DNA of 49,628 nucleotides from a phage. The translations under genes were made by a program, and so were the position numbers. The notes under the pieces were generated by a model. That model was not told the DNA's origin. It was given only the letters and a program-made list of their open reading frames with translations, and searched no databases. Shown piece after piece: positions 6,699-41,697 of this stretch (position 1 is its first letter; each line of letters opens with the position of its first letter). The stretch is from sequence record PZ721903.1, one strand, 5' to 3'.

Positions 6699-6715
6699 TT
6701 AACAAAAAGTGCTAT
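6699..6715. promoter_or_regulatory. palindromic box copy (late region)
   Basis: ttaacaaaaagtgctat; lies between a TTGACG hexamer and attatt, upstream of hairpin 6722. Confidence 0.6.
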
Positions 6716-10460: not shown

Positions 10461-10477
10461 TTAACAAAAAGTGCTAT
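10461..10477. promoter_or_regulatory. palindromic box copy directly upstream of the chaperone RBS
   Basis: ttaacaaaaagtgctat followed by caaCCAATCAGGAGaaacatcATG. Confidence 0.6.
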
Positions 10478-21127: not shown

Positions 21128-21150
21128 GCCCCTTTCGGGGCTTTTCTTTT
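21126..21150 (+). terminator. late-operon terminator
   Basis: agcccc-tttc-ggggct followed by tttctttt after the last tail gene. Confidence 0.65.
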
Positions 21151-21376
21151 ACATCGAGCAATCGTGAGACTTGAAGTTATTCTCTGATACGTAATGGAAT
21201 GAGAATGGATACCCAGCACGTAACAGCATCTCATCACCGCGCATCTTTGATCCAAAAACGGAAACCGAGTACTCTGCGTCACCTGATTCATAAATCGCAG
21301 TACAAGTGCGATCAGGCATCGATGAGCAACCAGTCAGGATGAATGCCGCAGCAATAATGGTGATTAATTTTTTCAT
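21149..21376 (-). CDS. cor: Cor-like superinfection exclusion lipoprotein
   Basis: Start at MKKLITIIAAAFILTGCSS (lipobox LTGC) behind RBS gagga; small lipoprotein encoded antisense just downstream of the J-like gene, as in T1/phi80/N15-type phages. Confidence 0.55.
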   Translation of the reverse strand: MKKLITIIAAAFILTGCSSMPDRTCTAIYESGDAEYSVSVFGSKMRGDEMLLRAGYPFSFHYVSENNFKSHDCSM

Positions 21377-21442
21377 TTGCATGTCCTCGTCGTTAGTGTG
21401 ATTGCATTGTATGTCGCATTTACTTTTATTGCAATAGCGCAA

Positions 21443-21845
21443 TTACAATTTTTTTTCGTGTAACGGGTGTCTATTTTTGTAACTGGAGATGGTGTTACAA
21501 AATCTACCCAATCCGAACGCAGGTAGATATGATAAAAACTCTATATAATATATATAGATAGATAATATTTAATTTTAGCTTTATATATATAATTATTGTT
21601 GTGTAACAGTTGTCTATCGTGTAACTGGTGATTTGATTGATTCGTCAAATTTCTATCATATATGTTCAAAATTTAATCAATATGGATTCTACTTGTAGCT
21701 ATCCCTGTATTTCTAAGAAAAAGCGGTTACAAGTATTACACAGTAGACATCACATAAAAATAGACTTAAGCCATTGATTCCGTTAATGCTGGTTGTAACT
21801 TGAGCGATATAGACACGCTATTACACACCAATTACATGTATCCGA
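21443..21845. promoter_or_regulatory. AT-rich noncoding region 1 with iterons (candidate origin / operator cluster)
   Basis: About 400 nt without ORFs; direct and inverted copies of GTGTAAC-N3-4-GTCTAT (21459-21476, 21604-21620, inverted near 21728-21749 and 21800-21818) plus the 17-mer ctatataatatatatag (21541-21557). Confidence 0.55.
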
Positions 21846-21873
21846 TTGACTAAACGCTGTTAATGGCTATAAT
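21846..21873 (+). promoter_or_regulatory. sigma70-like promoter (TTGACT-16-TATAAT) for the rightward recombination operon
   Basis: Near-consensus -35 at 21846-21851 and -10 at 21868-21873, followed by the CATCGtAAACGA box and RBS gggag before ATG 21905. Confidence 0.6.
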
Positions 21874-21904
21874 GGATTCATCGTAAACGAGGGAGATAAA
21901 CGCA

Positions 21905-25704: not shown

Positions 25705-25723
25705 AATAGCACGAATTGCTAAA
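25705..25723. promoter_or_regulatory. palindromic box copy in the tail-fibre 5' UTR / start-site region
   Basis: atagcacgaattgctaaac between the -10 (25728-25733) and RBS of the - strand tail-fibre gene. Confidence 0.6.
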
Positions 25724-27235: not shown

Positions 27236-27247
27236 CTTAATTCTCCT

Positions 27248-27267
27248 ATAGCACTTTTTGCTAAAAA
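27248..27267 (+). promoter_or_regulatory. palindromic box + -10 (tattat) upstream of the helicase gene
   Basis: atagcactttttgctaaaaa, 22-nt spacer with inverted repeat aacgtttac/gtaaacgtt flanking tattat. Confidence 0.6.
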
Positions 27268-27328
27268 CGTTTACTGTATGCCGTGTATTATAGCGTAAAC
27301 GTTACAACGATTCAAAGGATTAATAGAC

Positions 27329-29347
27329 GTGACAATGAACATTAAAAAGCAGATTGCATTACTTGGCGAGGACTATATAAAGCGAACTCAGGAGCGATTC
27401 ACTGTCGGTGAGGTTGTTCCTTATCCGTACCAGGTTGTTGCTTATGCTGAGATCGCGAAACGCCTATCAAATTACGAGCATCCATTCTTTGTTAAAGCGT
27501 CAGTATCTGCTGGTAAGACCATCATTTTTGCTATGGTTGCAAAGCAGTGTCAGAAAATGGGCTTAAAAATGCTCGTTCTGGCTCGCCAGGGTGAGATTGT
27601 CGATCAGGATAGCGAGGAGATTGACAACTTTGGGGTAACTAACTCCATATTCTCAGCCTCATTAGGTATTAAGTCCTGCTATTTTCCTATCGTGGTAGGC
27701 TCAGAGGGTACTGTTGCAAATGGCCTCGACAATGAGCTTGCTGATTTCGTCCCGCATGTAATTGGGATCGACGAATGTCACCAGGTGGATTGGGAAGACC
27801 TTGCGCAAGCCATTGAGGGCAAGGAAACAATGGAACAAATGAGGGGCGAGAAGGGAAAAATCATCATGGATGGAGATATTCCCCTGATTGGTAATGATGG
27901 AAAACCTTTGCTTGGGACTAAGCGCAGTCAGTACACAATCGTAATCATGGAAATGATGCGGCGCTGTAAAAAGGTTCACGGTCACGATCTCAGAATATTT
28001 GGTATGACTGGATCTGAATTTCGTGGCGTAGTTCCTATTCTGGTAGAGAATCCGAAAGCATTGGGATTCTGGCGTGAGCGAGTAACTGATATCGACACAA
28101 ACTATCTGATTGAGTTCGGTTCTGTTGTGCCGACAATATTCGGTTCAACAGACGGAGTTCATTACGATCTGGATAAGTTCAAGGCGTCGAGCGAGGACGG
28201 AGTGCAGGACTTTACAGAGAAAGACATGAAGGCTATGGAAGATGAGATCCTTCATGATAAATCTCTTACTCAGCGAATCATGCAAATGGTTGCCAAAAAG
28301 GCTGAAGAGCGTAACGCGGTACTGATTACATGTGCTGGTGTGCGCCACTGCAAAGAGGCAGCGGCAGCACTTCCTCCGGGAAGCACCTATGCAATTATTA
28401 CTGGCGACACAGACAACAAAACGCGCAAGAAGATTCTGGACGATGTAAGGGCCGGAAAAATTAAATACACCTTTCAGGTAATGGCGCTCACTACTGGTGT
28501 TAACGTTCCAAATTGGGATTTCAGTGTCATACTCCGCAAAATAGGGTCGCTCACACTGTTGATTCAACTTTTGGGTAGGGGTATGCGTCTGCTTAAATCC
28601 TGGCAGGTTGCTGAGGGAATGGTTAAGCAGGACCATCTGGTATGGGATTTCGCAGGTACGATGGATGAGTTGGGCCAGCTTTATTTCGATCCGATACTTG
28701 AGCAGGCGCAATTCCAAAAGCGTTTTGAAAACGGCAAAGATCCGAAAACATGTCCGAAATGCGGTTGCGTAAATAGCTTCTATGCTCGACGATGCGTTAA
28801 TGTCATTGATGGTGAACGTTGTGATCATTTCTGGACTTCTCAGGTTTGTGAGGACCAGGTTGACGAGCGCACCGGAAAAATCCTTGTTAAAGGATGCGGC
28901 GCAGAGAATGACGTTGTGGCCAGAGTCTGTCGTTGCTGTGATGTTTCGCTTGTCGATCCTAACCTGAAGTTATCCGGTAAGGCGTACACTAAGAATGACT
29001 GGTATGAAGTAAAGAATTTTGAGGTTACGCTAACCAAAAACCAGAAAGGCATAATATACAAATACACTCTTATTAACGATGATGGTGATGAGTTCAAGGC
29101 GTATGAAAAATTCTTCCCCGAGTCTGACTCTAAGATTTGCGGTACGCTATGGAAAACTAAAGGTGTATTGCCACACGTATCGGATCCTAAAATGCGCCGA
29201 TACTTTATCGGAATGAAGAACGCCATCAAGATTTTGCAATACTCACATCATATTGCTCACCCGGTGCGCGTAACTCATCGTCGCAACCAGAAGAAAGAAG
29301 ATATTATCTCACGAAAAGACTTTGGTATGGAGGATATCCCGGAATGA
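27329..29347 (+). CDS. SF2 DNA helicase with C-terminal zinc-finger region
   Basis: Walker A SAGKT, DEAH-like IDECH box, Cys clusters CPKCGC...C..C near the C-terminus; GTG start 27329 (RBS aagga). Confidence 0.75.
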   Translation: MTMNIKKQIALLGEDYIKRTQERFTVGEVVPYPYQVVAYAEIAKRLSNYEHPFFVKASVSAGKTIIFAMVAKQCQKMGLKMLVLARQGEIVDQDSEEIDNFGVTNSIFSASLGIKSCYFPIVVGSEGTVANGLDNELADFVPHVIGIDECHQVDWEDLAQAIEGKETMEQMRGEKGKIIMDGDIPLIGNDGKPLLGTKRSQYTIVIMEMMRRCKKVHGHDLRIFGMTGSEFRGVVPILVENPKALGFWRERVTDIDTNYLIEFGSVVPTIFGSTDGVHYDLDKFKASSEDGVQDFTEKDMKAMEDEILHDKSLTQRIMQMVAKKAEERNAVLITCAGVRHCKEAAAALPPGSTYAIITGDTDNKTRKKILDDVRAGKIKYTFQVMALTTGVNVPNWDFSVILRKIGSLTLLIQLLGRGMRLLKSWQVAEGMVKQDHLVWDFAGTMDELGQLYFDPILEQAQFQKRFENGKDPKTCPKCGCVNSFYARRCVNVIDGERCDHFWTSQVCEDQVDERTGKILVKGCGAENDVVARVCRCCDVSLVDPNLKLSGKAYTKNDWYEVKNFEVTLTKNQKGIIYKYTLINDDGDEFKAYEKFFPESDSKICGTLWKTKGVLPHVSDPKMRRYFIGMKNAIKILQYSHHIAHPVRVTHRRNQKKEDIISRKDFGMEDIPE

Positions 29348-29760
29348 TTACAGACAAAGGTGATTATTTAGAATTTTACGAGAGAGATCCAAGCGACACT
29401 CGAAAGGAGGACGCTCATCAGGTGGATTGTGTATCCTGGCTGAAATACAATTTTCCTCACCTTCTATTTTGGCACACTGTCAATGAAGGTGAAAAAACAA
29501 TCACATCGGCGCTCAGGGATGAGCAGGCCGGATTACTTAAAGGCGTGTCAGACTTCGTTATCCTGATTGGTGTTAACTCACGATACCCGTTTGCAGCAAT
29601 CGAACTTAAGCGGGTTAATAAGTCAGGCAAAGGAAAGGCGTCACCAGTCAGCGACAAGCAAAGGGAATTTCTCCAAAAGGTCCGGGAGCGTGGCGGCTTC
29701 TCTGCCGTCGCATACGGATTCGGGCAATTCAAGATCGCAATTTACGAAATGATGAAATAG
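29344..29760 (+). CDS. VRR-NUC-like nuclease (putative)
   Basis: 138 aa; DFVIL...ELK...Q motif pattern consistent with a PD-(D/E)xK VRR-NUC domain. Confidence 0.5.
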   Translation: MITDKGDYLEFYERDPSDTRKEDAHQVDCVSWLKYNFPHLLFWHTVNEGEKTITSALRDEQAGLLKGVSDFVILIGVNSRYPFAAIELKRVNKSGKGKASPVSDKQREFLQKVRERGGFSAVAYGFGQFKIAIYEMMK

Positions 29761-31625: not shown

Positions 31626-32777
31626 ATGTCACAAGCTAAAATCACTACCGAACAACTTGTCGAAGAGCGCATGAACGGCCTAACACTTCGCGAGATCGCG
31701 GAAAAGTACGGTATGCACATTCGAACTGTTGAAGCTCGCCACGCAAAGTTGGCAAAAGAAGGTCACTTCCACGGTAACGAGCATGTTGCTAAGAACGTAC
31801 CGGAAGGATTCATGGTAAAAGGCACATCAACGATGATTCGCGGCGATGGGACCGAGGTGGTGCGCTGGGTTAAGACCGATCAGGACCGTGAGAAGATTGC
31901 AGCAATGATGGAAGCGGCGCGTATTGCATTCTGTGAAGATCTGCCGCGAGCAAAGCCAACTGAGCTACTAACCTCACAAGGGCTTACTACAGCGATGGGT
32001 AAGCTGGCACTCTATCCGGTATTCGATCTTCATATTGGCGCGCTTGCTCATAAGCATGAATGCGGAGAGAACTATTCTACCGATGTAGCGGAAAAAGTGC
32101 TGAGTGACTTCTTTAATTACGCGATCGATATTGCTCCGAACGCAGAGAAGGCTGTTCTGTTAATCGGCGGTGACTTCCTGCACTCTGACGGACTTGATGC
32201 AGTTACTCCGGCAAGCGGCCACGTTCTTGATCAGGATTCACGATATGCTAAATTGGTGCATGTAGCGATTCGATCGGTGCGACGAGCTATAGACAAAATG
32301 CTGACGAAACACAAAGAGGTCGAAGTTCAGGTTATCGAAGGAAACCACGACCAGGCCGGGATGATTTGGTTACGCGCAGCAATGGCAGCATACTATGAAG
32401 ACGAGCCGCGAGTATTCGTTGACGTCAGTCCTATGATTCTGCATAAGACTCGTTGGGGAAATACCTTGTTGGGATACACTCACGGGCACACTATGAAAAA
32501 GGCAGACACGCGACTTGCAGCGATGGCAGCAGATTTCCGATCGGATTTCGGCGAGAGCAAGTATGTGTATACTCATAGCGGGCACTGGCATCACCAGACA
32601 ATCACTGAGCACTCGCTAGGTATTGATGAAGTACACGGTCAGTTAGGCGCGAAAGATGCATACGCAGCACGCGGAGGGTGGCGCTCATATCGCCAGGCGG
32701 CGGTAATTGTTTACGATAAGCAGTTTGGTGAAATCGGTCGATTCATCTATCGTCCAGAAATGACAGGATCGCACTAA
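31626..32777 (+). CDS. calcineurin-like metallophosphoesterase with N-terminal HTH
   Basis: Metallophosphatase motifs DLHIG, GGDFLH, GNHD, HGH, GHWH; N-terminal LTLREIAEKYGM helix-turn-helix-like segment. Confidence 0.7.
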   Translation: MSQAKITTEQLVEERMNGLTLREIAEKYGMHIRTVEARHAKLAKEGHFHGNEHVAKNVPEGFMVKGTSTMIRGDGTEVVRWVKTDQDREKIAAMMEAARIAFCEDLPRAKPTELLTSQGLTTAMGKLALYPVFDLHIGALAHKHECGENYSTDVAEKVLSDFFNYAIDIAPNAEKAVLLIGGDFLHSDGLDAVTPASGHVLDQDSRYAKLVHVAIRSVRRAIDKMLTKHKEVEVQVIEGNHDQAGMIWLRAAMAAYYEDEPRVFVDVSPMILHKTRWGNTLLGYTHGHTMKKADTRLAAMAADFRSDFGESKYVYTHSGHWHHQTITEHSLGIDEVHGQLGAKDAYAARGGWRSYRQAAVIVYDKQFGEIGRFIYRPEMTGSH

Positions 32778-32840: not shown

Positions 32841-33017
32841 ATGAAGCGAGTTAAGTGCATCCGAAATGACTCCAAAACACTTCCATTCCGCGTAAATCAG
32901 ATCTATAGTGTTGGTTATGATTTCGGTGGGGGATTATTTGAGATTTACGACGGGCGAGGTTCAGCAATTCAGGCTCCTCTGAACGGTAGCTATCTGGAAT
33001 TTATTGCGATAGATTAA
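32841..33017 (+). CDS. small hypothetical protein (58 aa)
   Basis: Below the 60-aa track cutoff; preceded by a complete cassette and RBS aagagga; followed by terminator 33039-33071. Confidence 0.4.
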   Translation: MKRVKCIRNDSKTLPFRVNQIYSVGYDFGGGLFEIYDGRGSAIQAPLNGSYLEFIAID

Positions 33018-35070: not shown

Positions 35071-36639
35071 TTAACCCATCAGCCGAGGATTAATGAAAAC
35101 AATATCATCAATCCGGCAAGTGTAGTTCATCTCTTCGAGCGTGATAAGAAGACTATCGATTCGCTCAGATACTTTCTGTTGACCGTTGAAAGGCGTAACG
35201 TTCCGGCACTTTGCAACGATGCTATGAATAGGTGCGCGGCCTTTGTTTTTCTTCGCGATCTCAGTGATAACATCAATCAGCTTACGAGATTCAGCCTCAT
35301 CACCAGCATACCCGGCAGCGCTGGCAGACGACAGATAAGTCCTGGAAAGCTCATTGAAGATCATGATTGCTTCCTGCATTGTTTCAAGGTCAATCTCACG
35401 GTTGGAACGGTTCGGTGATTCACCCTCCCAATTCTTGATCGTGTGGAGAACTGAAGCAATACGCAAGGCGTGCTTATCGAACTTGCCGAGATGACCGCGT
35501 AGCATTGAGTGAGAGTATTTCCCACCTGCGGCGAAATCCGGTTCCATCGCCTGACGCGCAAGGTTTAATTCACGCATAGCATTACGGCTTACAGAGAGAA
35601 CAACGTTTTCCTCCTTCATGATGTTGTGAACGAGTCTGTAATATTTGCTAACCAGTCCTCGATCGACTTCTTTATACAATGCATCACCATTTTCATCACA
35701 AAGAATACGAGTACCTAAAAGCGGTTCCTCGCGAACTAACAGGAAGCGCTCAGATACACCGATACCTCGTTGGCCTGCGTCCATGATACCTTTGATTGTT
35801 TCATCCTGCGCAATTACGCAGATCGAGCCAACCGGGCAAAGAGACAAGTTGTTGTCCTGATTGGAGCGAGCGACCTCCATATGGTTTTTATCCCACGCCT
35901 TAAGAATAAGCTCACTGTTAGATTTCTTATCTGAACCTCCATACGTAAGACCGAGCAATGTATTGATTGCCGTTGCCTCATCAGAAATTACGGAAAAGTG
36001 GCCCTGAACAGCGGCTACTTTCGCAAGACCTTCAGGTGTAGGATCTGATACAGCAAAAACAATATCAGCCATCTTTTTGATCTTCTCTTCCAGTTTTTCT
36101 TTGTCCTCGTATAGTGCCGCAGTCGTGTTTCCTTTAGGATCATTCTTGATTTCCTTCTCAACCTGGCGTAGCTGACTGGTTAAACGAATACGTTCCTTTT
36201 TGCGCTCTTCATTCAGTCGCTGAATCTCCGCACGCATAGGTGTAATCGCCGCTGAGTTAATCGCGGACTTACCTGTTGATGGTGGCTGGCTGATTACCAT
36301 GTAAAGCGCGGTCGGCTGTTCCTCTCCGTGATATTGCACCCAAAACTTCCCGAGCATCGCGGCTGAGATGCAACCTATAAAATGAGCATACGCGGATGAA
36401 ACCGGGAACTGGACTGATTCAGCTTTTGCTTTTGCATATTCGAATACCAGGTTATCGCCACCTAACGAAATCAGAGGGAACTTATCGTTGCCGCTATTGA
36501 TATCGATCGGATCTTGCCAAAATGAAACTGAGTCACCATAGCTGTTTTCACGAATTGCGATCGCCACCGGATTAACTCCAGTGCTATTGGCGATCTCAAT
36601 AATCTGTTGGTAATTCAGTTTTGGCTTAATATTAAACAT
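35071..36639 (-). CDS. P-loop NTPase (putative replication-associated ATPase/helicase)
   Basis: Start at MFNIKPK behind RBS aaggag; Walker A-like SQPPSTGKS; 522 aa. Confidence 0.45.
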   Translation of the reverse strand: MFNIKPKLNYQQIIEIANSTGVNPVAIAIRENSYGDSVSFWQDPIDINSGNDKFPLISLGGDNLVFEYAKAKAESVQFPVSSAYAHFIGCISAAMLGKFWVQYHGEEQPTALYMVISQPPSTGKSAINSAAITPMRAEIQRLNEERKKERIRLTSQLRQVEKEIKNDPKGNTTAALYEDKEKLEEKIKKMADIVFAVSDPTPEGLAKVAAVQGHFSVISDEATAINTLLGLTYGGSDKKSNSELILKAWDKNHMEVARSNQDNNLSLCPVGSICVIAQDETIKGIMDAGQRGIGVSERFLLVREEPLLGTRILCDENGDALYKEVDRGLVSKYYRLVHNIMKEENVVLSVSRNAMRELNLARQAMEPDFAAGGKYSHSMLRGHLGKFDKHALRIASVLHTIKNWEGESPNRSNREIDLETMQEAIMIFNELSRTYLSSASAAGYAGDEAESRKLIDVITEIAKKNKGRAPIHSIVAKCRNVTPFNGQQKVSERIDSLLITLEEMNYTCRIDDIVFINPRLMG

Positions 36640-36694
36640 CACAATAAACTCCTTGGTTGACGGTGTAAATGATACACCGCCAATGGTACACGCG

Positions 36695-36712
36695 TTTTGC
36701 AAAAAGTGCTAT
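36695..36712 (-). promoter_or_regulatory. palindromic box copy, leftward
   Basis: ttttgcaaaaagtgctat; overlaps the stop of 36716..37132 and precedes the P-loop gene. Confidence 0.55.
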
Positions 36713-39293: not shown

Positions 39294-39312
39294 TTTAACA
39301 AAAAGTGCTATT
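39294..39312 (-). promoter_or_regulatory. palindromic box copy, leftward cassette
   Basis: ttttaacaaaaagtgctat; contains the methyltransferase stop; on the - strand followed by cataat and CATCGAAACGAG. Confidence 0.6.
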
Positions 39313-39999
39313 TGCGATCGCTTTGAAAAATCCACGAGGAGATAAGGAACGTATCAGCTTCGTTTTGGCAGACTTGCCGCCCAGCTTGTTTTGCTGTGCA
39401 GAGTACCCGTCAGGCAGGTTTACAGGCTTCCTTTCTGGCATGACAAAGTCGTCCGAAGTCCAAAGACAAGTTTTCTTCGGGTAAGCATCGCGCGGCGCAA
39501 TATACATCGGGAACCAGGGGTGTGCGTCATTCTCAGGAAGATAGCCGCCATACTCCCAGGGATTGAAAGTGTGGTCAGCCTTTCGCCAGGCTGATGACAG
39601 GACGCTAACCGGATTCTCAATGATGTAAGTCACACCCAGGCTATCACCGATGTTCGCGGCAATCCGGGCGGTGGCAACAGCTTTCTCCTGGAATAGCGGA
39701 TCACGTTTACGCTTGCTGGCAAAGTGTCGAGCACCACTAACGGCCAGGTCAGTGCACGGCGGGAAGGCCATAATGAAATCCGGCTTGCCATACACACCCG
39801 CGATCGCATCACGTTCGAACGTTTCATCAATGAACACGTTCACATACTCAATGTTGGGATGCTCTACCCGGGCATTGTACTTTGCATAATCTCCGTGATC
39901 GGCTCCGTCAAAGTTGAAGCACATCACTTTATGACCTTGCTTTGCCAGTTCATGACCAGCCAGGCCCGAGCCGTCGAATAGTGACCAGATTAATTTCAT
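39295..39999 (-). CDS. DNA cytosine-5 methyltransferase-like protein
   Basis: Motif I-like FDGSG, PC motif FPPCTDLA and ENP motif in the expected order for C5-MTases; short (234 aa), so the target-recognition region is minimal. Confidence 0.5.
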   Translation of the reverse strand: MKLIWSLFDGSGLAGHELAKQGHKVMCFNFDGADHGDYAKYNARVEHPNIEYVNVFIDETFERDAIAGVYGKPDFIMAFPPCTDLAVSGARHFASKRKRDPLFQEKAVATARIAANIGDSLGVTYIIENPVSVLSSAWRKADHTFNPWEYGGYLPENDAHPWFPMYIAPRDAYPKKTCLWTSDDFVMPERKPVNLPDGYSAQQNKLGGKSAKTKLIRSLSPRGFFKAIANSTFC

Positions 40000-40208
40000 T
40001 TCGTTACCTCCTGGAAAACAGTTTGTCCGCTATTGGTCAGGAAGCGCCCGATCTTATTCATTGACCGGAACACGCCGATCTGATTCTGATGATTGTCAGT
40101 CGCGAAGTAACCGCCATCAATAAGGTAGATTTCATACACTGATTGATTCGTGAAGCTGTCAGTGCTGACGCTAACACATCGTACGGTACATTCAAATTCT
40201 GGTTCCAT
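39996..40208 (-). CDS. hypothetical protein (first gene of leftward early operon)
   Basis: Preceded by a cassette with CCAATCAGAGGA RBS; ATGA coupling to the next gene. Confidence 0.5.
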   Translation of the reverse strand: MEPEFECTVRCVSVSTDSFTNQSVYEIYLIDGGYFATDNHQNQIGVFRSMNKIGRFLTNSGQTVFQEVTK

Positions 40209-40268
40209 TGCCTGAGTCCTCTGATTGGTTGATGTGATGAATCATACCCTGCCGACCTGGCTGAGTCG

Positions 40269-40285
40269 TTAGCAAAAAATGCTAT
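40269..40285 (-). promoter_or_regulatory. palindromic box copy, leftward early promoter
   Basis: ttagcaaaaaatgctat; on the - strand followed by TATGATTCATCACATCAACCAATCAGAGGA and ATG 40208. Confidence 0.6.
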
Positions 40286-40476
40286 TCCAATAATTGCTCA
40301 TTATTCCATCAATAGCGGAATAGGTGGAATAATTCTGATTGCGATTGATTGCAAATGATGAAACGTGATTATTGCATGGTTTTCAACAGTTGGTTGATTT
40401 GTTGCTTAGATTGCAATGATTGTGAGAGGGGGGGGAATCTAGTGTTGCCCGGTTCGCCTGGTAATCATCTCCATTT

Positions 40477-40493
40477 TTAGCAAAAAGTGCTAT
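40477..40493 (-). promoter_or_regulatory. palindromic box copy, leftward, in control region 2
   Basis: ttagcaaaaagtgctat about 200 nt upstream of the previous copy; no ORF between them. Confidence 0.5.
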
Positions 40494-40896
40494 CGATTAC
40501 ACTTTACCTTGTCACAGATGTAATATTTGTCTAGAATCGCACTTGTGACAAAATTACACACTGTGACGCCTCTAAATATACATATAGATATATGTATCTA
40601 TATAATATATATAGTGTTTTCTTTATTTATATATATAGATAATTATATTGTAATAGTTGTGTATAGTTGTCTTACATTGTCTAGCGTACTGTTGGCATAT
40701 TTCTATCTGCATGTTTATATATACAGTACTTTTTTGAGAGCTATATATTTCTATAGTGACTCTAGACAGCTAGACAAATGTTACACAGCTTAATATCGGC
40801 TCGCAGTCATTGACAGCTCTGTATCGCACTGTCACAATGTCAATTGTTGACACATTATGACGCCATTTACACACGAATAGACAAAGAGGATATATT

Positions 40897-41412
40897 ATGA
40901 GCAATACCAATCAGGAATTAAAAATCACCGATATGATTCGCCTAACCTGCGACGCAATGTATCGCGACAAAGGCATGAGTGAGTTCTCTTTCGTGGCTGA
41001 TGATATGGCCCTGGAAGGCGCACGATTCTACTTCCGTGGCCAGGAGGTAAGCGATAGCGATCTTGAATCTGCCGCTGCCGGATGGGTGGACCAGAACCAG
41101 GGTGAGGTGGAGAAGCGATTCAAGTCTGCTTTCATTACGCCAATCATTACCCGGCACTTTTGCAAGTATGGCAAGGTGGCAAAGGTGAAGGTAGGCCGGA
41201 ATGACGCTGCAATCACAATGATAACGGTTATCGTTACCGACGAAGAGATTCCCGTGAAGAAGCGCCGCAGCCGGAAAAAAGTTAGCCTGGCCGACTGCCT
41301 GGATTCGTTTGATGTTGATGTTGGCAAGCTATCGGATAGCGAGTTAATGGTTCGCGACGTGAATGAGATCGTACGCCAGATGAAAGCACATATCGAAAAG
41401 TGCGGGCTGTAA
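40897..41412 (+). CDS. hypothetical early protein
   Basis: 171 aa, RBS aagagga; first gene of the rightward early operon. Confidence 0.55.
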   Translation: MSNTNQELKITDMIRLTCDAMYRDKGMSEFSFVADDMALEGARFYFRGQEVSDSDLESAAAGWVDQNQGEVEKRFKSAFITPIITRHFCKYGKVAKVKVGRNDAAITMITVIVTDEEIPVKKRRSRKKVSLADCLDSFDVDVGKLSDSELMVRDVNEIVRQMKAHIEKCGL

Positions 41413-41426
41413 CGCTGATAGGTGAA

Positions 41427-41445
41427 ATAGCACTTTTTGTTAAAG
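41427..41445 (+). promoter_or_regulatory. palindromic box + tattat
   Basis: atagcactttttgttaaag, hairpin cccggtcgagcggatcggg, tattat. Confidence 0.55.
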
Positions 41446-41502
41446 CCCGGTCGAGCGGATCGGGTATTATCTTCTCATTGACACGATACAGAGGAATCGA
41501 AG

Positions 41503-41697
41503 ATGGAAACGCAAATTGACGTAGTGGTTGTTCAGCGAGACTCAACTCATGAAAAGGGTCTGTTCAAGAAAGGAACCGAAATCACGATCGACCTTGAGGA
41601 TATGGTTGCGTATCACTCTGGCCTCACTTGGAACGTGGTGCGCGTAGGCAGCGACTACAAACTCAAAGGCTTTAACACTTACTTTGCGGAGGTTTAA
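41503..41697 (+). CDS. hypothetical protein
   Basis: Cassette upstream; RBS gagga. Confidence 0.5.
   Translation: METQIDVVVVQRDSTHEKGLFKKGTEITIDLEDMVAYHSGLTWNVVRVGSDYKLKGFNTYFAEV

Follow-up and report, generated by a model that had tools for sequence, protein, structure and literature searches.

The intergenic region described here lies in PZ721903.1, a window of 49,628 bp (the whole stretch of DNA analyzed) that constitutes a complete T1-like phage genome (Drexlerviridae, Tunavirus, JMPW1 type) and is linearized at the start codon of the small terminase gene (open reading frame (ORF) 1-549; TerS, gp3 family). Positions 40000-41100 are 98.8% identical to phi2013, and JMPW1 also matches. Region 2 (R2, 40209-40896) is a 688-nucleotide (nt) gap with 34% GC between divergent genes. 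Its leftward neighbor occupies 39996-40208, with a methylase gene next ("putative site specific DNA methylase" in phi2013), and its rightward neighbor (40897-41412) is a DUF7174/phrog_11083 gene. A second gap, region 1 (R1, 21443-21904), lies between a cor-like lipoprotein gene and recE, which encodes exonuclease VIII. It holds an AT core, GTGTAAC/TGTCTA repeats and the recE promoter (TTGACT-16-TATAAT, 21846-21873), which with 11/12 matches is the best sigma-70 promoter of the genome scan (locus 21149-21442 / 21846-21873).

T1-like phages are classic models, notorious laboratory and fermenter contaminants and common phage-therapy candidates, and their origin of replication, exact pac site and promoter logic remain undefined. 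A first-pass annotation of the window had described R2 as a control region between divergent operons. This description is borne out, and all of the features that it listed are present, far above chance, with coordinates that are slightly offset. R2 is a real, conserved, multipart, noncoding control region, whose anatomy, statistics and conservation were established directly, using an alignment of nine Tunavirus sequences and comparison with T1, Sushi, Rtp and TLS, which represent four subfamilies. By its sequence features R2 splits into a left part (40241-40492), a central part (40494-40790) and a right part (40810-40896). We consider it a little better than an even chance that these correspond to three functional blocks of a terminal control region: a packaging/leftward block, a central module and a rightward block.

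Results

The central part of R2 is built around an AT-rich core with (TA)n tracts (40570-40650), paralogous to 21530-21600 in R1, with clusters of short repeats on both sides. The left cluster (40494-40570) contains TTACAC, TTGTCACA, TGTAAT-ATT-TGTCTA, TGTGACAA, ATTACACAC and GTGACGCC in mixed orientation. The middle and right clusters (40649-40790) contain TGTAATAGTTGTGTA, TGTCTTACATTGTCTAG and TAGACAGCTAGACAAATGTTACACAG, and a second small AT block, CATGTTTATATATACAGTA (40709-40727), is located between them. The element tagacaaatgttacacag at 40771-40788 has a mirror copy, TGTAATATTTGTCTAG, at 40519-40534, such that the two form a 16-nt inverted repeat that is 94% complementary. The orientation of the TGTCTA/TAGACA sites flips across the AT-rich segment in both R1 and R2. 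The inverted TGTCACA/TGTGACA repeats that had been noted earlier are found as TGTCAC/GTGACA at 40510, 40545, 40563 and 40830. Finally, a promoter-like site on the + strand, P_R1 (40509-40537), consisting of TTGTCA (40509-40514), a 17-nt spacer and TAGAAT (40532-40537), points into the AT core.

The repeats are concentrated in R1 and R2. All six genome matches to TGTAAC-N3-TGTCTA with ≤2 mismatches fall within the two regions. Strand-collapsed k-mer counts, in which R1 and R2 together were compared with the other 48.5 kb of the genome, give 9 versus 7 for TAGACA, 6 versus 1 for TTACACA and 17 versus 0 for ATATATA. The P values for k-mer enrichment range from about 1e-12 to 1e-48. The 17-mer CTATATAATATATATAG occurs in the genome only at 21541 and 40598, and not at all in shuffles. 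It was correctly recognized in the first-pass annotation as shared by the two regions, though it lies within the AT core at 40598-40614, about 5 nt to the right of the position given there. Local alignment shows that the similarity extends over a paralogous module of ~125 nt (21493-21620 and 40544-40667), with a score of 56 compared to 23.9 ± 3.1 for dinucleotide shuffles (z about 10). The claim that R1 and R2 have iterons in common holds for the shared repeats and the paralogous module; it does not hold uniformly across relatives, where part of the R2 repeat content switches as a block together with the first rightward gene, as described below.

One could suppose that these patterns arose by chance in AT-rich intergenic DNA of low complexity and have no specific function. 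R2 is indeed AT-rich, and simple promoter scans of it do not rise above chance. However, the enrichments, the 17-mer and the R1/R2 alignment lie far beyond what shuffled sequence yields, and the architecture is conserved across four subfamilies. Shuffle statistics and cross-family conservation refute this explanation, to which we assign a negligible probability.

Two further readings of the central sequence were considered. The ORF at 40527-40793, which had been suspected to be noncoding, is broken by stops or frameshifts in 7/8 relatives, and its variable sites are distributed 9/9/8 over the three codon positions, with no bias. It was rejected as a protein gene on the basis of the broken frame and the lack of a third-position excess. 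Single-sequence folding of 40545-40810 gives z values of -5.8 and -4.4. Since alifold yields only about -13 kcal/mol, this segment is not a conserved RNA structure; the strong z reflects the DNA-level dyad and the (TA)n symmetry. The AT core (40570-40650) is a candidate DNA-unwinding element.

In the nine-sequence Tunavirus alignment, conservation is seen for the AT core (40572-40648) and the block CATGTTTATATATACAGTA, while the repeat clusters on either side of them and between them change from one haplotype to another as a single set. The window type has TAGACA, TTACAC and TGTCAC; the T1-type has three copies of CGATTAACAC and two of ATTACGCC; and a third type is seen in genome L063. The switch coincides with the N-terminal part of the first rightward gene (DUF7174/phrog_11083). 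Within the left cluster a 10-nt indel amounts to one helical turn, and the inverted repeat there shows a compensatory change between T1 and L020/L074 (TGTCTAC...GTAGACA versus TGTATAT...GTATACA). The position of P_R1 is kept while its sequence varies, being TTGTCA-17-TAGAAT in the window, TTGATT-17-TATGAT in T1 and TTGACC-17-TACAAT in L074. The window site has 10/12 matches, and the positional conservation of P_R1 is confined to Tunavirus. The block CATGTTTATATATACAGTA resembles a LexA box (ATGT-N8-ACAG compared to CTGT-N8-ACAG) and has been kept in both Tunavirus haplotypes. The first rightward gene (40897-41412) and its homologues are mosaic, with at least three types of N-terminal domain and an invariant linker, PVKKRRSRKK. 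The C-terminal segment exists as two alleles, which recombine independently of the N-terminal type. An AlphaFold2 model of the protein is confident (predicted local distance difference test score of 85.8), and its fold is not assignable.

The paired design is present in every subfamily examined, where a (TA)n AT core with lineage-specific repeats occurs upstream of the recE module and in the terminal gap. In Sushi (Webervirus), the repeat ATCTTAC/GTAAGAT occurs 12 times in the two regions and 5 times in the other 47.5 kb (p = 9e-20), and ATCTTACC is found 7 versus 0 times. In Rtp the repeat is TTCCGCGGAA, with CCGCGGA counted 6 versus 0 times, and TTACGC repeats are phased at 10-11 nt beside the core. 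TLS has GTGAACA/GGAACA in inverted arrangement, with an R1/R2 local score of 63, and T1 has TGTAACA (6 versus 0). The arrangement used to recognize iteron origins, multiple short repeats beside an AT-rich element, is thus seen in the window, Sushi, Rtp, T1 and TLS. Each lineage has its own repeats, which both modules of one genome share. Because the R1 and R2 repeats change together between lineages, the data point to a phage-encoded binding factor. Divergence between genera is likewise seen in all of the replication proteins. Among Tunavirus genomes, helicase, primase and Pir are 94-99% identical where the R2 repeats have switched.

Several additional features of Webervirus were noted. In Sushi (L108, 25856-26350) the recE-erf-ssb module is inverted relative to Tunavirus, and the AT-core/repeat element is still located directly upstream of exonuclease VIII despite the inversion. 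The exonuclease VIII promoter of Sushi is a box promoter of the kind described below (TAGCACTTTTTGACT-22-TATACT), whereas its Tunavirus counterpart is a sigma-70 consensus promoter. Webervirus R2 (Sushi 41100-41569, L043-type) has a second repeat that is linked to the first gene, besides the genus-wide ATCTTACC. This second repeat, CCACAAA in eight copies in Sushi and of the TTACCAAA type in L043, mirrors the two-layer organization of Tunavirus.

The left part of R2 contains two palindromic boxes on the - strand, at 40284-40270 and 40492-40478. They belong to a family defined by TAGCA-N5-TGCTA with ≤1 mismatch, which has 21 copies in the genome compared to 1.4 ± 1.2 in shuffles. The oriented consensus is aaaTAGCAC-NNN-TTGyTAaaa, and the direction of the boxes follows the local operon. 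When a -10-like hexamer is defined as having at least 4/6 matches including A2 and T6, and is sought 19-25 nt from the box, it is found downstream in 18/21 oriented boxes, 15 of them at exactly 22 nt and 2 at 23 nt; random positions give 2.8 ± 1.6. This -10 mostly lies within an inverted repeat and is then followed by a conserved tcATCGAnACGA leader. The box would span about -49 to -35, with its center near -42, which is the position of a class-II activator. On the basis of the fixed 22-nt spacing, the inverted repeat around the -10 and the conserved leader, we read the boxes as promoters. A sigma-54 reading of the box (TGGCAC-N5-TTGC) was rejected, as its spacing is N3, AG stands in place of GG and a -10 of sigma-70 type is found 22 nt downstream.

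A 21-nt intergenic repeat, aaATAGCACnnnTTGnTAAAA, was reported for TLS and noted in T1, Rtp and Rogue1 by German, Kropinski, Misra and colleagues in 2024, who left its function open and proposed a stoperator, an enhancer or an UP element (PMC11447400). The R2 boxes correspond to this Drexlerviridae repeat, in that both match ATAGCACnnnTTGnTAAAA with ≤1 mismatch, are intergenic and are oriented with transcription. In contrast to those proposals, the -10 at a fixed 22 nt, the inverted repeat and the leader indicate promoters here, and the published data on Pir fit with this. In T1, Orf23 (Pir) was shown to activate the dam and hol promoters and to repress the recE promoter as well as its own (Laganenka et al., PMC6737242); the phrase "binding site" does not occur in that paper. 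Pir has a Cro-like helix-turn-helix (HTH). Box promoters in the window include that of dam, with its box at 29758, and that of the small gene at 32842, which precedes holin and has its box at 32769. A further box, at 27249, precedes the pir ATG by 13 nt and the helicase -10 by 22 nt, and one protein bound there would repress pir and activate the divergent helicase promoter. These observations suggest that Pir probably binds the boxes. The fixed -10 spacing and the connection with Pir are apparently new, in that we found no paper stating either.

The pir-helicase gap (27236-27330) contains overlapping divergent -10 elements, TATTAT rightward and TATAAT leftward, the latter with the -35 TTGAAT. 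Its single box lies at about +15 to +30 of the pir transcript and at about -42 of the helicase promoter, a layout in which a single bound protein would account for both autorepression and activation. Almost all units of the early and middle classes open with the same module, consisting of a box, 22 nt, a TATAGT-like -10 in an inverted repeat and an ATCGAnACGA leader, with examples on the + strand at 27249, 29758, 32769, 41428, 42168, 43188, 44475, 46123 and 47790 and on the - strand at 39310, 38846, 37730, 37211, 36711 and 34549. Since the box hairpin and T-rich -10 are annotated as rho-independent terminators in some relatives, the modules may double as terminator and promoter. Boxes at 6700-6714 and 10462-10476 are in reverse orientation inside the + strand late (structural) region. 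The first of these falls between the two hexamers of a promoter-like + strand site, TTGACG-16-TATTAT, which precedes the 6770-7729 gene; a terminator hairpin comes just after the box. The reverse boxes may represent a different regulatory use at late promoters. A perfect box, TAGCACGAATTGCTA (25707-25721), between the tail-fibre-like and primase genes, is an orphan with no -10 at 19-25 nt in either orientation.

The two boxes of R2 differ. The box at 40284-40270, TAGCATTTTTTGCTA, is followed by a 23-nt spacer and the -10 TATGAT (40246-40241), forming the leftward box promoter P_L (40241-40284, - strand). A leader follows, with a predicted start near 40234, a Shine-Dalgarno (SD) sequence AGAGGA at 40222-40217 and the ATG at 40208. 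Conservation of the element extends to T1, Sushi, Rtp and TLS. Given the TATGAT at 23 nt, the leader and the SD, P_L is probably the promoter of the leftward operon. The box at 40478-40492, TAGCACTTTTTGCTA, also on the - strand, lies 16 nt upstream of the P_R1 -35 and has no -10 at 19-25 nt, one of three such among the 21 boxes. The -10 is absent in 9/9 Tunavirus sequences, in which the position of the box is invariant. While the box at 40270-40284 has the -10 at 22-23 nt that marks the promoter class, this second box does not; it belongs to the repeat family and not to the promoter class, and is predicted to be a binding site.

The segment between the boxes is filled by arrays. TATTCC (40283, 40302) and GGAATA (40317, 40326) form an array at 40283-40333, with two direct and two inverted copies upstream of P_L where 0.05 copies are expected per strand. 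Together with the box, it shows about 80% identity in roughly 190 Klebsiella Webervirus genomes, and Rtp and TLS have other repeats in its place. A (T)GATTG(C) array of same-strand copies (40335-40425, + strand) follows. The GATTGC repeats of the first-pass annotation are seen here as five copies of GATTG on the + strand (40337-40422) compared to 0.27 expected (P = 9e-6), the densest cluster in the genome. The first four copies are phased by exactly 10 nt, with TGAT[TG] at 40336/46/56/66. Both arrays look like protein-binding sites. Next comes a G8 run (40425-40432) and a hairpin-forming inverted repeat, (T)GCCCGG-TTCG-CCTGGTA, which together occupy 40425-40462; in T1 the stem is perfect (TACCAGG TTCG CCTGGTA). 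The hairpin is conserved and sits where other box promoters have the inverted repeat containing the -10. At the second box, this inverted repeat is kept and encloses only a CGAA/TTCG loop. The left half of R2 (40260-40495) is almost invariant in the nine-sequence alignment. The length and composition of the G run vary in relatives (G6, GGGAGG), and it is possibly a slippage-prone or sequencing-error-prone site.

It had been proposed that the two boxes are tandem leftward promoters, the upstream one giving a leader or noncoding RNA of ~200 nt over 40285-40470. The boxes are indeed co-oriented and 208 nt apart with no ORF between them, and the Rtp counterpart of the upstream box has a -10, TAATAT, at 22 nt. 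In Tunavirus, however, the upstream box lacks the -10 that accompanies 18/21 boxes. The 193-nt interval between the boxes folds no better than shuffles on either strand (z = -0.35, -0.11), alifold on this interval and the hairpin reveals no excess stability and no covariation, and there is no Rfam match for the whole window (gathering threshold) or for 40100-41000 (E ≤ 1). A scan of R2 for terminators likewise found none. The interval is occupied by the arrays that resemble protein sites and by the pac end. The proposal is not supported, and we regard such a transcript as highly improbable; the interval reads as a pac neighborhood and not as an RNA gene.

The placement of pac is taken from records and papers on relatives. 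The RefSeq record of T1 annotates 1-2800 as a repeat_region, which we read as the terminal redundancy, and T1 coordinate 1 aligns to about 40372 of the window, directly past the fourth phased TGATT. The records of Rtp and TLS also start inside their homologous arrays. The TLS record starts at AGATTT, the pac assignment of its authors from restriction mapping of a submolar pac fragment (PMC11447400), and this start lies within the TLS GATTG/GATTT array. For SU57, too, the genome end was placed in this untranslated region by the authors of its paper. Because the T1, Rtp and TLS records start in the array, the GATTGC repeats coincide with the pac end of the family, a coincidence that was missed in the first-pass annotation, and the array (40335-40425) is the probable site of pac recognition and cleavage. 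With the first headful cut in this array, the terminal redundancy would most likely take in all of the sequence rightward of about 40372, and with it the AT core and the first rightward genes. Some observations weigh against this placement. Equating T1 coordinate 1 with the pac end rests on the repeat_region annotation of the record, and the final TLS assignment used similarity to the P22 hexamer after restriction mapping (PMC11447400). One Webervirus record, mtp29, ends in the AT core and not in the array. Nothing usable on T1 transcriptomics, on origin mapping or on pac positions derived with PhageTerm came out of a literature search.

The record ends in Webervirus also bear on whether the region serves packaging only, with the AT core as the terminase cleavage zone and the repeats as small-terminase sites, like pacL-pacC-pacR of SPP1. 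At least one record (mtp29) ends inside the core, and in other records of the mtp/cp series the conserved element is at the same distance from the record end. In addition, no more than about 200 nt separate the pac end from the core in T1, Rtp and TLS, and TerS belongs to the P22 gp3 family. This explanation does not account for the second module, which lies 19 kb away upstream of recE in four subfamilies and has no genome end reported there, and the repeats differ between close relatives whose terS is 95% identical. We consider it very unlikely that packaging is the only function.

The right part of R2 contains a predicted sigma-70 promoter, P_R2 (40810-40852, + strand), composed of TTGACA (40810-40815), a 17-nt spacer and TGtCACAAT with the -10 hexamer at 40833-40838. 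It has 10/12 matches plus the TG and is annotated as a promoter in SA30RD; its positional equivalent in Sushi is TTGACA-16-TATTAT (11/12). The palindrome TGTCAATTGTTGACA (40838-40852) overlaps the predicted start and is operator-like. The rightward leader (40867-40896, + strand) contains TTACACAC-GAA-TAGACA and the SD AAGAGGA, directly before the gene at 40897-41412. P_R2 is predicted to be the main immediate-early rightward promoter. Taken jointly, the promoter and pac assignments are ones in which we have good confidence.

Discussion

The following mechanism would accommodate these features. In the leftward block, P_L would drive the leftward operon, probably in a Pir-dependent manner. The small terminase would most likely recognize pac in the GATTG array, where the first headful cut would be made, and the orphan box would close this block as a binding site. 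The central module would be an origin, with the repeats acting as iterons, the (TA)n core as the unwinding element, and the MCM-like DUF3987 helicase, with its C-terminal winged HTH (wHTH), and the DnaG-type primase loaded there. Transcription from P_R1 into the AT core may help its opening, and the repeats may also act as operators. In the rightward block, an immediate-early sigma-70 promoter would be controlled through the operator-like palindrome over its start. All transcription starts in this scheme are predicted ones.

The origin reading draws on the (TA)n tracts, which are unique to the two loci, on the repeat dyad that flanks them and on the duplication of the module. Papers on TLS and SU57 state that no origin is known for T1-like phages, and the TLS paper reports finding no iterons (PMC11447400); we found no experimental origin mapping for T1-like phages in the literature. 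The phage has genes for a DnaG-type primase and for a DUF3987 protein (35071-36702). Kazlauskas et al. place the DUF3987 family among the MCM-like replicative helicases, with a wHTH at the C-terminus (PMC4889955). The C-terminus is the part least conserved between genera (32-43% compared to about 60% for the core), and the helicase has no solved relative by sequence. The origin-type reading of the first-pass annotation is reasonable in the light of these features, and we put it forward tentatively, as somewhat short of an even chance. The roles of origin and operator are not mutually exclusive.

Other observations run counter to an origin or to the composite reading as a whole. The number of promoter-like matches in R2 is not above chance (6 versus 4.2 ± 2.0), and no counterpart of P_R1 was found in Sushi, Rtp or R1. 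In the T1 and L063 haplotypes, the promoter-proximal R2 repeats differ from the R1 repeats, which is a better fit to locally acting operators than to one shared initiator. Many of the Sushi repeats are 16-bp palindromes, GTAAGAT-N2-ATCTTAC, typical of dimeric regulators. In T1, Pir and CRP have been shown experimentally to repress the recE promoter (PMC6737242), so regulatory binding in R1 is real. No DnaA- or IHF-type site was noticed on reading by eye; of the CRP, DnaA, IHF and LexA sites sought in this way, just the LexA-like sequence at 40709-40727 was found. The iteron-binding protein itself is only a candidate.

Several of these points favor a purely transcriptional role, the main rival to an origin. 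Here the repeats would be operators for Pir, the product of the first rightward gene or an Orf65-like protein, regulators that switch P_R1, P_R2 and PrecE on and off, and the core, with no origin function, would be upstream or curved DNA for the early promoters. R1 and R2 do lie directly upstream of early operons with near-consensus sigma-70 promoters, one of which, that of recE, is the T1 promoter repressed by Pir and cAMP-CRP (PMC6737242). The palindrome over the P_R2 start fits as well, as do the switching of the three R2 clusters with the first rightward gene, the compensatory changes in the inverted repeat and the palindromic form of the Sushi repeats. However, the linkage of the haplotypes to that gene is confounded by physical adjacency. 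Operators alone also leave unexplained why (TA)n is confined to two loci (17 versus 0), why the core, 200-300 nt from the promoters, is conserved while the repeats change, and why the whole ~125-nt module is duplicated. We consider a purely transcriptional role possible but, on balance, rather unlikely.

A broader scheme can be proposed in which Drexlerviridae carry two archaeal- or Staphylococcus aureus pathogenicity island (SaPI)-style origins per genome, with repeat dyads around a (TA)n element loading the DUF3987 helicase through its variable wHTH. Replication, early transcription and packaging would be coupled in a 700-bp hub, with one origin copy inside the terminal redundancy, beside pac and the immediate-early promoters, and Pir on the boxes flanking pac would be the timing switch. 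This scheme is speculative, and we judge it unlikely in its entirety.

The analysis gives a testable map, consisting of the box with 22 nt and a -10, the phased GATTG array at the genome end and the paired AT-core modules. If correct, the map would explain the temporal program of gene expression of T1-type phages and would allow their rational engineering, for example as minimal replicons or as packaging signals for transducing particles. It is of moderate interest in that it turns three open questions on a classic phage family into direct experiments.

The elements of R2 can be compared with known systems. Class II activators, such as CRP at -41.5 and lambda cI at PRM, and the T4 MotA-box middle promoters likewise use a short site that replaces a good -35, is centered near -42 and is often joined by an extended -10, and in systems of the class II/T4 MotA type a phage regulator turns on delayed genes. 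The box promoters differ in the sequence of the site and in the family of the regulator (Cro-like HTH), the binding of which is predicted here, and we know of no AsiA-like cofactor for them. As in the pac hexamers of P1, pacL/pacR of SPP1 and pac of P22, the array in the window has short, same-orientation, helically phased repeats at the genome end. The array is found neither within nor next to terS but about 9 kb upstream of that gene, and its repeat unit, (T)GATTG, is different. The pac site of P1 depends on GATC and Dam, and no GATC was seen on reading the GATTG array of the window.

For the paired modules, SPP1 oriL/oriR, a widely separated pair to which the origin-binding protein G38P binds, and P4 ori/crr are similar in having two distant noncoding regions that share repeats beside AT-rich DNA. 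R1 and R2 have no sequence or protein homology with these, and the T1-like copies carry early promoters, one of them lying beside pac in the presumed terminal redundancy. In SaPI and archaeal origins, where origin recognition boxes are arranged around a DNA-unwinding element (ORB-DUE-ORB), repeats flank the AT-rich element and the initiator helicase or MCM is loaded there. The window likewise has repeats around an AT core of ~80 bp and an MCM-like wHTH helicase; it differs in the mixed orientation of the repeats in the left cluster, and binding of the helicase to the repeats is putative. The paired modules thus resemble the SPP1, P4, SaPI and archaeal origins in layout only, and membership in any of these classes is not established. 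R2 combines known kinds of element, promoters, pac and an iteron-type origin or operator array, and constitutes no new category.

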